From the NCBI RefSeq assembly GCF_003019035.1, contig NZ_CP027447.1: DNA of 64,000 nucleotides; one strand, written 5' to 3'. Position 1 is the stretch's first letter. Every line of letters starts with the position of its first letter. The translations under genes and the position numbers were made by a program. Shown one piece after another: positions 31,592 to 35,298 of this stretch. Source of the DNA: Escherichia coli (lineage in GTDB: Bacteria; Pseudomonadota; Gammaproteobacteria; Enterobacterales; Enterobacteriaceae). The notes beneath the pieces were generated by a model, which saw nothing but the letters and a program-made list of their open reading frames with translations, did not search any database and was not told where the DNA came from.

Positions 31592-31629
31592 AACCGTAGC
31601 ACGTCGTATGCAAGATCGTGCTGCGGTTT
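31591..31629. repeat. Hairpin repeat copy A (AAACCGTAGCACG-n13-CGTGCTGCGGTTT)
   Basis: 13-bp inverted repeat with one mismatch, directly after the pin stop; core shared with copies at 32609..32720 and 37170..37270. Confidence 0.6.
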
Positions 31630-31648
31630 ATGCTTATCACTTAAAGAC

Positions 31649-32422
31649 TCAAAAATTAGGTGAGTAACGGACCGGGGACATAGCTCCTTTTTTTCTTAAT
31701 TCATCTGGTATTTTTTTTCCAAGATAAAGATTTGCTATTTCAGGTGGGGCTTCTCGGCCTTCAAAACCATAGCGAGAACTTTGTGTTGCCTCAAAGTCAG
31801 GATCCTCGTCCCAGTATTTCATCGTAGGGAAATTTTCACGTGTTGATTTGAGCCATTTATCAGCAATGAAAACCCCCCGAACGATTCCCCTTACAGTAGC
31901 AAGAATAACTTCTGCTTGGCTGGCGCGAGAGACATTAATGCGCCAGCTAAATCGAACCGCATCATAAAGCTCTGAATCCTTTGCACTTCTGTTAACGGAA
32001 ATCATTAATGCTTTATGATGAAATGTTATGGTTTCGGGTTGATATGTTGCTATCAACTCTTTGACATGCGCGGCGCCGAATTCATTGCTGCCAGCACCAT
32101 TCATGATATTCGTTAACCCAGGGTAGGCATCAATAAGTGCAGCTTCAACTTCGTACGCCGTCTTTTCATCAGTCATTCCGTGTCGATGGATGACATGGAT
32201 AACTTCAAGTCCTGCTAACCTTATTTCTCTAATTTGCTTTAGCTTGTTGCTCAGTAACTCGTCATCATCAGTCGCTGCCACTTCACCGCGCATATGGGCA
32301 AATACGCGGTTACCTTTGCCTTTCCCTACATAGAAGGTGCTTCCGTCCCTCGGATCAATCAATCGGTATACATACCAGCCAAGGTGTTCAATTACTCCAG
32401 AAGGAAACTCAGTAATATCCAT
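31649..32422 (-). CDS. GIY-YIG-like nuclease domain protein with uncharacterised C-terminal domain
   Basis: ~258 aa from the ATG at 32422 (ORF track starts at a TTG at 32473); N-terminal pattern WYVYRL-x9[14 protein letters not shown] then conserved Glu/Asn region; no HNH/Cys cluster, so not McrA. Confidence 0.55.
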
Positions 32423-32608
32423 TTTGCAATATCTATGAATTATTTGTGAGACGTATATTAATGAACATTGCAAGGGCTCACAACCAGTAGTGTTGAGAAA
32501 ACTATCGGGTAAATGAGGCTAATCCTTTGAATTTACATAGTAAAAAAGATACTTTTCCTCATAGTGTGAGCTAATTTTATGTTTCGTTTGATGATCGGAC
32601 CGGTCTCA

Positions 32609-32720
32609 AAAACCGCAGGCACGTTGTATGCAAGAACGTGCTGTGGCTGGCTGGTGAACTTCCAATAGTGCGAATATTGAATGATTTCTATCTGTTATAG
32701 ATTTTACCGTATTTCGGCAT
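32609..32720. repeat. Repeat copy B (~110 bp) of a dispersed element
   Basis: Shares the core CCGCAGGCACGTTGTATGCAAGAACGTGCTG and the downstream GGCTGGTGAACTTCCAATAGTGCGAATATTGAATGATTTC with copy C (~70% identity by eye). Confidence 0.55.
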
Positions 32721-32981
32721 GAATGAAACTGAATATCCTCCCACCGATTCTCCATGACTTTACGCCACTGTCTCTAGGGCTGCTATGTGCCAGAGGCGGA
32801 CGTTGTTAAAATAGAAAATATCCCAACCTTGTATGAGTCGTGCAATAATTTCGAACTTTATACAAAGCTTTGGTTGTAAAGGTGTATAACCACAAGTGAC
32901 ATTAATCACATTTGTAAAGGCAAAATGCAACAAACTGAATTAGTTAATTGCGTAAATTTGAAGTTATGTTAAGGTGGTGAT

Positions 32982-33114
32982 GGTTTATGGGCAGATTTTG
33001 GGTCGCGTTTCGCGATCAGTGAAAAAAATGTCCGATAGGATTGCCTTTCAGGATCTCATGTTCCTCGCATTTCTTAAGGTTCTTGTCAAGTTTGCGTAAG
33101 AGTGCCCATAAACC
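32982..33114 (+). ncRNA. Candidate retron msr/msd non-coding RNA flanked by inverted repeats a1/a2
   Basis: 12-bp perfect inverted repeats GGTTTATGGGCA (32982..32993) and TGCCCATAAACC (33103..33114) bracket 109 nt; a G follows a1; small hairpin TCGCG-TTT-CGCGA at 33003..33015; ends 20 bp before the RT start. Confidence 0.4.
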
Positions 33115-33133
33115 CTTTTAGAGGCGATCTAAA

Positions 33134-34969
33134 GTGAAACGACTACAATCATTAAAAGAAGCAAAAACAAAACCAGACTTGGCTAAGCTATTAGGAATCA
33201 AACCTTCAGCGTTAACATACTGCCTATATGTATTAAAACCTGAAAATCAATACACACAGTTTAAGATACCAAAAAAAAATGGCGGCGAACGGATAATAAG
33301 TGCACCTAACGGAATATTAAAGACGATACAGTCATCCTTATCAAGACTGCTTCTAGATTGCTTAGACGAAATAGTTTGCATTAAGTTTCCAGACTCAGAG
33401 TTAGCAAGGCAGAAAGCAAAAAACTCAAAAATATTAAAGTTAAAATGTTCCAACTCAGAAATCAAACAACCCTCACTGTCTCATGGATTTGAAAGAAAGC
33501 GTTCAATTATTACAAATGCAATGATGCACTTGGGGAAAAAATATGTTTTTAATATAGACTTGGATAATTTTTTCGGCAGTTTTAACTTTGGTAGAGTCCG
33601 AGGTTTTTTCATAAAAAATAGAAACTTTGCACTCGATCCGGAAATCGCAACTGTAATTGCTAAAATTGCGTGCTACAACAATGAACTACCCCAAGGCAGC
33701 CCATGCTCCCCAGTAATCACTAATCTAATCACTCACTCGTTAGACATTAAACTGGCAGCGATTGCATCAAGAAACTCATCCACTTTTACAAGATATGCTG
33801 ATGATATTACATTCTCTACGAGGAAGGGGGAGTTTCCTTCTGCTATAGCAAAAAATCAAAATGGTAAATATATCGTTAGTAAGAAAATTAGGGGCGAGAT
33901 AACTCGCTCAGGTTTTATAATTAATGATGGGAAGACAAGAAATCAGTATAAAGACTCGAGGCAAGATGTAACAGGCTTAGTGGTTAATAAAAAGCCAAAC
34001 ACGAAAAAAGAATATTGGAGGCTTGTGCGTGCGCAATGTGACCATTTATTTAAACATGGTGAGTTCTTAGAGGTGATTGACGGCAAGGAAATAAAGGGGA
34101 ATGTTAATACCCTTGCAGGCAAACTTAACTTCATAGACCAAGTTGACCACTATAATAGATTGCGTCAAGGCGAAAAATTAAATCCAAAATATCACTTAAA
34201 AAAAGATGCCAATAAAAATGGCCATGCCAAAAAAAGGCGTTACTTACATAGTTCTAGAGAAAAAACGTTTAGTGAGTTTCTCTTCTATCGTTTATTTTAT
34301 GGCAATGAATTACCAACAATTCTTACGGAAGGTAAAACTGACAATATTTATCTGAAGGCAGCAATACATAAGTTAGCCTCATCATTCCCTAATTTGGCGG
34401 TCGCTGAAAGTCCAGGGCTCTCTTATAAGCCACGGACTAAATTTGTTAACTACAATGAGCGGACAAAATATTTACTTGAACTTTATGGTGGTGCTGATTA
34501 TTTAAAGGATTTTGTTATTCATTATAAACAACACTTTAATCGTTATAAGGCTCCCAAACCATCTAATCCAGTAATTATACTTGTTGATAATGATAGCGGA
34601 CCAAAAGATCTGATTAATTACGTTAGTAAAGTTGATAATATTGGTATTTTCCCCACAGGTGTTCCAGATATCCGCGCCTCTGAGTTTGTACATATTTTTT
34701 GTAATCTTTATTTAGTGCTTACCCCTCAAGTTAAGGGATATACAGGAACTGATATAGAGCATTTTTTTAAAGATGCAGATCGACTTAGACCACATAAAGG
34801 TAAGTTTTTCAATACAGTCTCTAAGCGTGATCATGATAATGATTTGAGCAAGGAATCTTTCGCAACTCATATTGTTCATGCCCACAAGCATGAAATTGAT
34901 TTTAGTGGATTTACAAGCCTGTTAGAACGGTTAGTAAAAGTCATAAATCACTTTGACACTGTTAAGTAA
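33134..34969 (+). CDS. Retron-type reverse transcriptase fused to a C-terminal Toprim-like domain
   Basis: 611 aa (GTG start). RT motifs: IPKKNGGER, NAMMH (retron NAxxH), FNIDLDNFF (A), LPQGSPCSPVITNL (B), YADD (C), VTGLVVN (retron VTG); core resembles retron Ec86 RT as recalled. C-terminus carries acidic motifs ILTEGKTD and IILVDND. Confidence 0.8.
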   Translation: MKRLQSLKEAKTKPDLAKLLGIKPSALTYCLYVLKPENQYTQFKIPKKNGGERIISAPNGILKTIQSSLSRLLLDCLDEIVCIKFPDSELARQKAKNSKILKLKCSNSEIKQPSLSHGFERKRSIITNAMMHLGKKYVFNIDLDNFFGSFNFGRVRGFFIKNRNFALDPEIATVIAKIACYNNELPQGSPCSPVITNLITHSLDIKLAAIASRNSSTFTRYADDITFSTRKGEFPSAIAKNQNGKYIVSKKIRGEITRSGFIINDGKTRNQYKDSRQDVTGLVVNKKPNTKKEYWRLVRAQCDHLFKHGEFLEVIDGKEIKGNVNTLAGKLNFIDQVDHYNRLRQGEKLNPKYHLKKDANKNGHAKKRRYLHSSREKTFSEFLFYRLFYGNELPTILTEGKTDNIYLKAAIHKLASSFPNLAVAESPGLSYKPRTKFVNYNERTKYLLELYGGADYLKDFVIHYKQHFNRYKAPKPSNPVIILVDNDSGPKDLINYVSKVDNIGIFPTGVPDIRASEFVHIFCNLYLVLTPQVKGYTGTDIEHFFKDADRLRPHKGKFFNTVSKRDHDNDLSKESFATHIVHAHKHEIDFSGFTSLLERLVKVINHFDTVK

Positions 34970-35298
34970 TATTATGATGCGCACTGATTATTCCTTATTC
35001 AGCTAAAATTTCTACTGTAGTCCCAACTTCCGTTCCTCGCTCATAACAGACATTCACTACAGTTATGGTAGAAGGTATGCATGCTGGGTGGGGAAAGTAT
35101 GAAGGAAAAGAAGACTGCTGCGCCGTTTGTTGTCACATTTATCTTCATTGGCTATGCAAGTCGTAATACAAGGTGGGACAAAACTGAGACACATAAGGCC
35201 TCGCAATGACTTGCAAGGCTTTACATGTTTTGATGTGGTGGGACGTGTGAGCGCAGTGTTGATGGGGTAATGCTTTGAATTAGAAGCGGATTCTTATA

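Follow-up and report, generated by a model that had tools for sequence, protein, structure and literature searches.

The interval between the invertase gene pinE and the right attachment site (attR) of an Escherichia coli prophage at thrW is very probably a cargo, or lysogenic-conversion, locus of an SfV/e14-like lambdoid prophage that carries two independent, characterized anti-phage systems in adjacent slots, with cassettes exchanged through short conserved flanks. The interval spans positions 31,592 to 35,298 of the 64,000-nt stretch analyzed here (the window; contig NZ_CP027447.1, assembly GCF_003019035.1). Slot 1 holds the modification-dependent restriction endonuclease CMoRE, also known as PD-T4-3, and slot 2 holds a type I-C retron built on a reverse transcriptase (RT)-TOPRIM fusion.

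The limits of the interval are sharp. The plus-strand serine invertase gene pinE occupies 31037 to 31591 (RefSeq start taken from a 99.7% identical locus, L001; the open reading frame [ORF] opens at 31001), so that 31592 is the first post-invertase base. pinE does not count as cargo; it is conserved and anchors the cargo locus on the left. On the right, the 46-nt core ATTCGTAATGCGAAGGTCGTAGGTTCGACTCCTATTATCGGCACCA has a single exact match in the window, at 35299 to 35344 on the plus strand. This is the published attP, attL, and attR core of phages SfI, SfII, SfV, and SfX and forms the 3' part of the tRNA-Thr gene thrW (PMC3636060). An ARAGORN search of the window found no tRNA, because thrW is represented by its 3' part alone. 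The core is also present at attL, beside the integrase, in a near-identical prophage of another genome (L014, 9030 to 9076; the 25-nt 3' part was matched at 9052 to 9076 and the remainder read off the sequence). The integrase of the window's own prophage lies outside the window, and its position beside attL is taken from that near-identical prophage. The tail genes upstream of the island are 97% identical to those of SfV, SfI, and SfIV. With an identical 46-nt core, a Mu-like tail module, and cargo adjoining attP, the prophage is a member of the SfV/SfI/SfII/SfIV family at thrW, not e14 itself. Since the core stands at both attL and attR and the island occupies the cargo position of SfV and e14, the island lies inside the prophage, at the family's known cargo locus.

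A sequence-only reading of this DNA had described the region between the invertase and the prophage end as AT-rich, with two divergently transcribed accessory genes (a GIY-YIG-like nuclease and a retron-type RT), repeats, and no structural genes, and each part of that description was borne out. GC content is 0.33 to 0.44 across 31500 to 35250, compared with 0.55 to 0.60 in the tail genes at 26000 to 28750. Two large genes diverge, one on the minus strand (31649 to 32422) and one on the plus strand (33134 to 34969); otherwise there are only short ORFs, and none of the ORFs listed in 31592 to 35298 is a structural gene. The repeats are a 28-nt direct repeat flanking the nuclease gene and a 12-nt inverted repeat upstream of the RT gene, both described below.

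The minus-strand gene encodes CMoRE, a single-protein restriction endonuclease of type IV (modification-dependent) and of the GIY-YIG fold. The ORF extends from 31649 to 32473, with the real start at 32422, giving a protein of 257 residues. It matches the PADLOC profile PD-T4-3 (PDLC04031) over its full length (profile positions 1 to 255 of 256, E value 2.7e-140) and shares 253 of 257 residues (98%) with CMoRE of E. coli O157:H7 in PDB entry 9U75 (residues 1 to 257, E value 3.7e-172). The GIYxY-YIG motif, as defined for CMoRE in PMC12923530, is present with Tyr17, Tyr19, and Tyr31 (G15-W-Y17-V-Y19 and F30-Y31-V-G33). Two of the four substitutions relative to 9U75 sit in an acidic run, T-D-D-D-E, at residues 51 to 55; the same text describes CMoRE as having an inhibitory, negatively charged loop. 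According to PMC12923530 and PMC12366544, CMoRE degrades DNA containing 5-hydroxymethylcytosine or its glucosylated form and protects against T-even phages. The window gene thus encodes essentially the same protein, with the same motif, as the one in the solved structures (PMC12923530; PDB 9U75 and 9U7U), and the accessible part of that paper makes no mention of the gene's place in a prophage cargo slot. A homing endonuclease reading of this gene was rejected on its near-identity to the solved CMoRE protein.

The plus-strand gene encodes a 611-residue RT-TOPRIM fusion of the type I-C (Ec67/Eco2) retron family. It matches PADLOC RT-Toprim_I-C with an E value of 4.8e-222 and NCBIfam NF038237 (retron_Ec67_fus) with 742.1 bits, above the curated cut-off of 450, over profile positions 1 to 572 of 572. 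The protein is 43% identical to the Eco2/Ec67 chains of PDB entries 9LM3 and 9I2F. Its RT motif YADD at residues 221 to 224 and its TOPRIM acidic residues Glu399 and Asp403 (in TEGKTD) and Asp485 and Asp487 (in VDNDSG) align with YADD 199 to 202 and Glu374, Asp378, Asp460, and Asp462 of Eco2, where YADD and the acidic residues are required for defense (PMC12916289, PMC12405507). The retron comprises one protein-coding gene, without a separate effector, as is the rule for type I-C; Retron-Eco2 (Ec67), of type I-C1, has the same single-gene architecture. The N-terminal part of the window RT contains some 25 inserted, lysine/serine-rich residues (residues 85 to 114; window positions 33386 to 33475) that Eco2 lacks. 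Group II intron RT and Drt2 readings were rejected, as the RT scores far under their cut-offs and above the retron cut-off. Abi and DRT readings of the two genes were likewise set aside, given the near-identity of one to solved CMoRE and the retron score of the other.

A conserved gene for the retron non-coding RNA (ncRNA; msr-msd) lies directly upstream, on the plus strand at 32982 to 33114. Its ends, a1 (32982 to 32993) and a2 (33103 to 33114), form a perfect 12-nt inverted repeat, and a2 ends 19 nt before the RT start. In a comparison of eight IMG/VR loci whose RTs are 74 to 99% identical, the 133-nt block from a1 to a2 is nearly invariant, with variation only in the middle of msd, and both flanks diverge. 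This is the signature of a constrained RNA gene. The Eco2 msr is laid out as a1, G15, a 4-nt single strand, a stem-loop, a 9-nt single strand, and an RNA-DNA duplex, with termination at G52 after U51 (PMC12916289, PMC12405507). In the window the elements follow in matching order: a1, a G, AUUUU, a stem-loop ending in CAGU (33000 to 33020, plus strand), a 9-nt single strand 3' of it (33021 to 33029, plus strand), and a G. Features in common with the Eco2 ncRNA are a1/a2, GGCAG-AUUU around the branching G, the msr stem-loop ending in CAGU, and the 9-nt single strand. The Eco2 RNA sequence used in this motif comparison was cross-checked against 11 residue labels printed in PMC12405507. By analogy with Eco2, the branching G is predicted at 32994 and the msd template at 33030 to 33101, giving a multicopy single-stranded DNA (msDNA) of about 72 nt that would be expected to begin 5'-TCTTACGC. 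The msd sequence differs from that of Eco2, and the predicted length compares with 67 nt there. A search of 30500 to 36500 against Rfam at an E value of 1 or less returned no retron RNA family; the sole hit was a partial match to CssrB, taken up below.

The retron appears as a unit of transfer. Exactly 32782 to 35051 (plus strand; upstream region, ncRNA, and RT-TOPRIM gene), the slot 2 cargo, recurs at 99.5% identity beside rspB, in a Rac/Qin-like prophage, and in two contigs of IMG/VR (L003, 7001 to 9270; L015, 3613 to 5882; L016, 2667 to 4936). These copies lie in the early region of the Rac/Qin-like prophage, between a DUF977 gene and hokD, indicating recent transfer between unrelated prophage positions. 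More diverged relatives of the retron adjoin a portal and terminase of P2-like type, reside in a P4-like satellite, or follow another tail-fiber gene.

The island has two slots, not one. A terminator-like hairpin identified by RNA folding (hairpin 1; 31591 to 31629, -26.9 kcal/mol, z-score -5.4, followed by UUUAUGCUU) lies between the convergent pinE and CMoRE genes and forms the left boundary of slot 1. The 28-nt direct repeat, itself a hairpin, stands on both sides of the nuclease gene (31599 to 31626 and 32619 to 32646, 89% identical). Slots 1 and 2 are separated by a 195-nt boundary element (32610 to 32804, plus strand), which consists of hairpin 2 (32613 to 32646) and some 160 nt. Slot 1 lies between the two hairpin copies. 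Slot 2 reaches from the 195-nt element's end to an att-proximal block (35025 to 35298), the conserved right anchor of the locus, which is 88 to 96% identical in relatives with other cargo. Homology to SfV spans 35174 to 35361 at 96%, so from 35174 on this block is the shared attP arm. End-points of homology between the window and its relatives cluster at 31591 to 31628, 32610 to 32631, 32782 to 32821, and 35018 to 35051. Breakpoints of e14 and of loci L023, L024, L013, and L009 fall within the first of these clusters, and for other cargos the left breakpoints gather at 32794 to 32821 and the right ones at 35018 to 35039.

The 195-nt element recurs between cassettes in relatives (L009, 4918 to 5112; L011, 2257 to 2448; L013, 5463 to 5655). 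L009 and L011, which carry three cassettes, have an extra copy between cassettes; in L013 the element follows pinE directly and slot 1 is empty. Beyond this locus, 5,409 of 5,426 complete E. coli genomes carry the element core (about 100 nt), with three copies as the median (this and the genome counts below are from megablast coverage thresholds). Each of six sampled copies, representing five distinct loci because Qin was drawn twice, is found at that end of a lambdoid prophage which carries the cargo, with either the first gene of the chromosome or a terminal DinI-like gene at most about 0.6 kb away. They occur in Qin after pinQ-ydfK-ynfT (two copies), at the prfC site, in the lambda attB region beside ybhB-bioA, at the ssrA site after the EspW/EspM2 effector genes, and next to sitD. 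Across nine distinct copies the hairpin stem is 91% paired and has three compensatory pairs, a number reached in none of 500 shuffles, and the loop GTATGCAAGA is conserved. We read the hairpin and element as an insulating bidirectional terminator that also offers a short stretch of homology through which cassettes can be exchanged; phage recombinases work with about 40 nt.

Two side observations concern these hairpins. The Rfam match to CssrB, a Shigella small RNA, covers 31569 to 31625 and only the 3' hairpin of the model, at 32 bits compared with a gathering score of 76; the CssrB transcript may end at the same prophage hairpin. A chromosomal copy of the hairpin and its ~100-nt core lies 2 kb outside the prophage, at 37172 to 37265 in the ykgJ-ecpE spacer. 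It is about 80 to 88% identical to 32606 to 32712, with compensatory changes in the stem when compared with the phage copies, and may mark an old prophage end.

In a sample of about 20 loci, the flanks of the locus are conserved and its interior is not. Identity is 88 to 99% in the left block (30955 to about 32800, or to 31592) as well as in the right one (35025 to 35398), and the interior takes more than 12 configurations. Only 7 of the 5,426 genomes carry the island itself (at least 80% of 31001 to 36000); the pinE-3'/CMoRE block is found in 809 and pinE-mcrA in 329. In sampled prophages with tail-gene matches of about 95 to 97% identity, a dozen or more other sets take up the space from pinE to the same att core. 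Slot 1, in the loci examined, is occupied by type IV enzymes whose folds are of three unrelated kinds, namely McrA (HNH), CMoRE (GIY-YIG), or a GmrSD-like DUF262 protein that matches mREase_IV at 1,481 bits, and it is empty in the Avs2 locus. CMoRE is accompanied by a Dcm-type methyltransferase with a type II endonuclease, DUF6650, and AbiTii; by an OLD/AriA/GajA-like nuclease; by a PD-T4-6/Stk2-like kinase with a hypothetical protein; by helix-turn-helix, ImmA, BRO-N, and S1 peptidase proteins; by a lipase; by an AraC regulator with insertion sequence fragments; by a restriction endonuclease with a small tyrosine recombinase and a hypothetical protein; by an FlxA-like protein; or by an unannotated pair of 139 and 488 residues. 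Two further sets, without CMoRE, are Avs2 alone and the DUF262 protein together with the same retron as in the window. Some relatives have frameshifted CMoRE and AraC genes.

Many of these cargos are recognized defense systems. PADLOC, run on the relatives, reported MTase_II/REase_II, AbiTii, Avs2, the AriA/GajA/Old-like nuclease, the PD-T4-6/Stk2-like kinase, mREase_IV twice (the DUF262 protein and McrA), and capH/capP-like regulators with the S1 peptidase; some cargo sets had no match in PADLOC, NCBIfam, or Pfam. The 139- and 488-residue pair is among the latter, with no significant match in any of the three. It was seen in two loci (L008, 723 to 2189 and 2506 to 2925; L002, 5927 to 8128) and, judging by rows labeled "hypothetical protein (x2/x3)", is apparently the most frequent occupant of slot 2 in the closest relatives. 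By position alone it is a candidate new defense system. Cargo also occurs outside the thrW family: in L023 (NZ_CP054407.1, 1263007 to 1271052), a different prophage at ssrA without an invertase, the same CMoRE cassette and the Dcm/type II restriction-modification cassette directly follow the tail-fiber assembly gene, so cargo blocks travel among prophages that differ in integrase and fibers.

The sequence-only reading had further placed the island at the position of mcrA in e14, taken it for a hotspot where defense genes are swapped, and proposed comparing the pin-to-attR interval across relatives and running a defense predictor. These expectations were confirmed: e14 of K-12 reads pinE-mcrA-attR/icdC, the interval is neither conserved across relatives nor a carrier of core phage functions, and PADLOC recognizes both window genes as well as many of the relatives' cargos. 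The data support the interval as a prophage-encoded defense hotspot.

Known cargo loci resemble this one in position and differ in content. The full order in e14 is ymfQ-ycfK-tfaP-tfaE-stfE-pinE-mcrA-attR/icdC; its tail-fiber/invertase module is homologous to that of the window, with pinE DNA 92% identical, and homology ends at 31592, one base past the pinE stop. As in the window, a type IV modification-dependent nuclease follows pinE at once and attR comes next. Unlike the window prophage, e14 is integrated in icd rather than thrW, and its single slot is filled by the HNH enzyme McrA, a second cassette being absent; neither the hairpin nor the 195-nt element was detected there. In SfV, the segment from the tail-fiber assembly gene to attP contains gtrV-gtrB-gtrA. 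For this family, PMC3636060 reports a relationship to e14 and a gtrABC position that is always directly upstream of attP. SfV, SfI, SfII, and SfIV share with the window the thrW core, the tail genes, a cargo locus beside attP, and the attP arm. Their cargo, however, serves O-antigen glucosylation (gtrA, gtrB, and a gtr-type gene) and not intracellular defense, and SfV lacks an invertase or invertible fiber segment.

P2 and P4 are established hotspots of antiviral systems (Rousset et al. 2022, PMC9122126). They too have conserved phage genes flanking a variable interval rich in known and candidate defense systems, and the window's retron lineage also occurs in P2-like and P4-like contexts. The window prophage belongs to a different phage family, in which the head and early genes are lambdoid and the tail is Mu-like, and its locus runs from invertase to att site. 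Rousset et al. (PMC9122126) do not mention e14 or invertases, and our literature search found no earlier description of a defense hotspot at the pinE-to-att interval, in e14, or in thrW phages. One sampled copy of the 195-nt element lies just after EspW/EspM2 at the end of an ssrA prophage. Exchangeable effector loci in lambdoid prophages of enterohemorrhagic E. coli, with cargo 3' of the tail-fiber genes near the prophage end, were reportedly described by Tobe and colleagues in 2006. The cargo there is type III secretion effectors and not defense genes.

We propose that both systems are expressed and active in the lysogen. The C-terminal domain of CMoRE would sense 5-hydroxymethylcytosine or glucosyl-hydroxymethylcytosine in incoming DNA, and its GIY-YIG domain would then cut the modified DNA of T-even-type phages, a role equivalent to that of the unrelated HNH enzyme McrA at the e14 position. 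The retron RT would copy the msd part of the upstream ncRNA into the branched msDNA. Eco2 is a trimer of RT-TOPRIM gated by msDNA, its triggers are DenB or A1, and its output is tRNA cleavage (PMC12916289, PMC12405507). By analogy, RT-TOPRIM may here assemble with msDNA into a trimer whose TOPRIM nuclease is held inactive by the msDNA; once a phage nuclease had degraded the msDNA, TOPRIM would be free to cut tRNAs, and translation would stop. Neither system should harm the prophage's own unmodified DNA. As DenB is specific for unmodified deoxycytidine DNA (PMC12916289, PMC12405507), CMoRE and the retron may press the T-even strategy of cytosine modification from both sides, an idea weakened by the 43% identity of the retron protein to Eco2. 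Cassettes would be swapped by recombination in the short conserved flanks, that is, the terminator-like hairpin, the 195-nt element, and the att-proximal block, and relatives would therefore come to hold different defense sets.

Several observations weigh against parts of this account. The identity of 43% to Eco2, together with the insertion in the RT, means that trimer formation, trigger, and tRNA target may differ. The retron RNA shows no compensatory pairs among the five distinct sequences, which are nearly identical in the paired regions, and single-sequence folds are unremarkable (z-score -1.9 for the RNA and -1.5 for the predicted msDNA, a weak fold). A scan for consensus promoters and terminators gave 6 promoter-like sites compared with 11.4 expected from shuffled sequence, and no promoter is assigned on this basis. 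The cargo survey is a sample and not a statistical enrichment. Finally, single-base deletions in C-runs upstream of the island, detailed below, leave sequence quality or prophage decay uncertain outside it.

Exchange by homology in the flanks has to be set against capture of cassettes by a dedicated site-specific mechanism acting at the conserved hairpin, as in an integron-like array. A hairpin or element copy precedes each cassette in relatives, about ten homology end-points fall inside the two hairpins, the loop is kept as the stem covaries, and the element is repeated through the genome at prophage cargo ends, all of which speak for such a mechanism. An insulating bidirectional terminator, however, would likewise persist at cassette borders and offer homology for ordinary recombination. 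The right breakpoints and the left breakpoints of slot 2 (32782 to 32821) lie away from the hairpins, and the retron cassette of the Rac/Qin-like prophage has no adjacent element. No recombinase linked to the hairpin is encoded in 31592 to 35298; the only adjacent one is Pin, and the island has no site matching the Pin crossover sequence at three or fewer mismatches. Action of Pin on the island was accordingly rejected, the only two crossover sites being 29134 to 29152 and 30957 to 30975, the ends of the invertible segment. We consider site-specific capture unlikely.

The other two alternatives concern where the island belongs and whether it still works. It is scarcely credible that the island is no part of the prophage but a small element or remnant of its own, situated between the real prophage end and the chromosome, even though tandem elements do occur at thrW (an integrase remnant at 35351 to 35509 and, in the H1 genome, another prophage left of attL) and the GC content of the island is unlike that of the phage body: the att core is to the right of the island, the window has no second core, the SfV attP arm adjoins the island, and in seven other genomes the island is contiguous with pinE. 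Moreover, the free phages SfV, SfI, and SfIV carry equivalent cargo inside the packaged genome, beside attP. The genes might also be inert passengers in a decaying cryptic prophage that no longer defend the cell, a reading that could draw on the frameshifted CMoRE and AraC genes of some relatives, on the frameshifted integrase of the H1 genome, and on frameshift-like deletions in the neighboring tail-fiber genes. Those deletions all fall in C-runs, as homopolymer sequencing errors would. Both cargo ORFs are full length with every catalytic residue present, CMoRE is 98% identical to an enzyme of demonstrated activity, and the retron RNA is visibly more conserved than its flanks. In a native clinical isolate, only two systems proved active, and PD-T4-3 was one of them (10.1101/2024.12.20.629700). 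Loss of function is therefore improbable, and a working two-slot defense locus within the prophage remains our preferred explanation.

The surroundings of the island contain several further features. Compared with the 99.6% identical prophage in L001, the window has five single-base deletions at 29900 to 31040, all in C-runs, which split the inverted tail-fiber assembly gene into three ORFs (29925 to 30514); they look like homopolymer sequencing errors, not real decay. Inside the att-proximal block, a 42-codon ORF with the hydrophobic stretch FVVTFIFIGYA (35081 to 35209) overlaps an opposite-strand terminator-like hairpin (35198 to 35219) and may encode a small membrane protein or be mere attP-arm sequence. 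Immediately 3' of the att core (35351 to 35941), the C-terminal remnant of a tyrosine integrase on the minus strand (35351 to 35509) is followed by yagU, indicating tandem or decayed elements at thrW. In L001, unlike in the window genome, yagP' and paoDCBA lie between the integrase remnant and yagU; as this stretch is present in other genomes with the same prophage, it has been lost in the window genome and in L002.

Both cargo systems are already characterized, and identical proteins are already named in RefSeq. With this locus, the concept of prophage defense hotspots, known from P2 and P4, takes in a third lineage of E. coli/Shigella prophages, a very common one, and a single locus links mcrA of e14, gtrABC of the Shigella serotype-converting phages, and modern defense systems. 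Its anchors (the pinE stop or hairpin, the 195-nt element, and the att-proximal block) are a handle for extracting every cargo set and thus for discovery by association. Two modest leads follow, the boundary element and the unannotated cargos. It is a rather doubtful idea that the hairpin and 195-nt element form a dedicated cassette-junction signal common to many lambdoid prophage ends (SfV/e14-like, Qin, ssrA, prfC, and the lambda attB region). If so, unannotated slot 2 sets such as the 139- and 488-residue pair would be new anti-phage systems, and the region from tail fiber to att would be an integron-like platform on which unrelated prophages exchange defense genes, type III secretion system effectors, and conversion genes.

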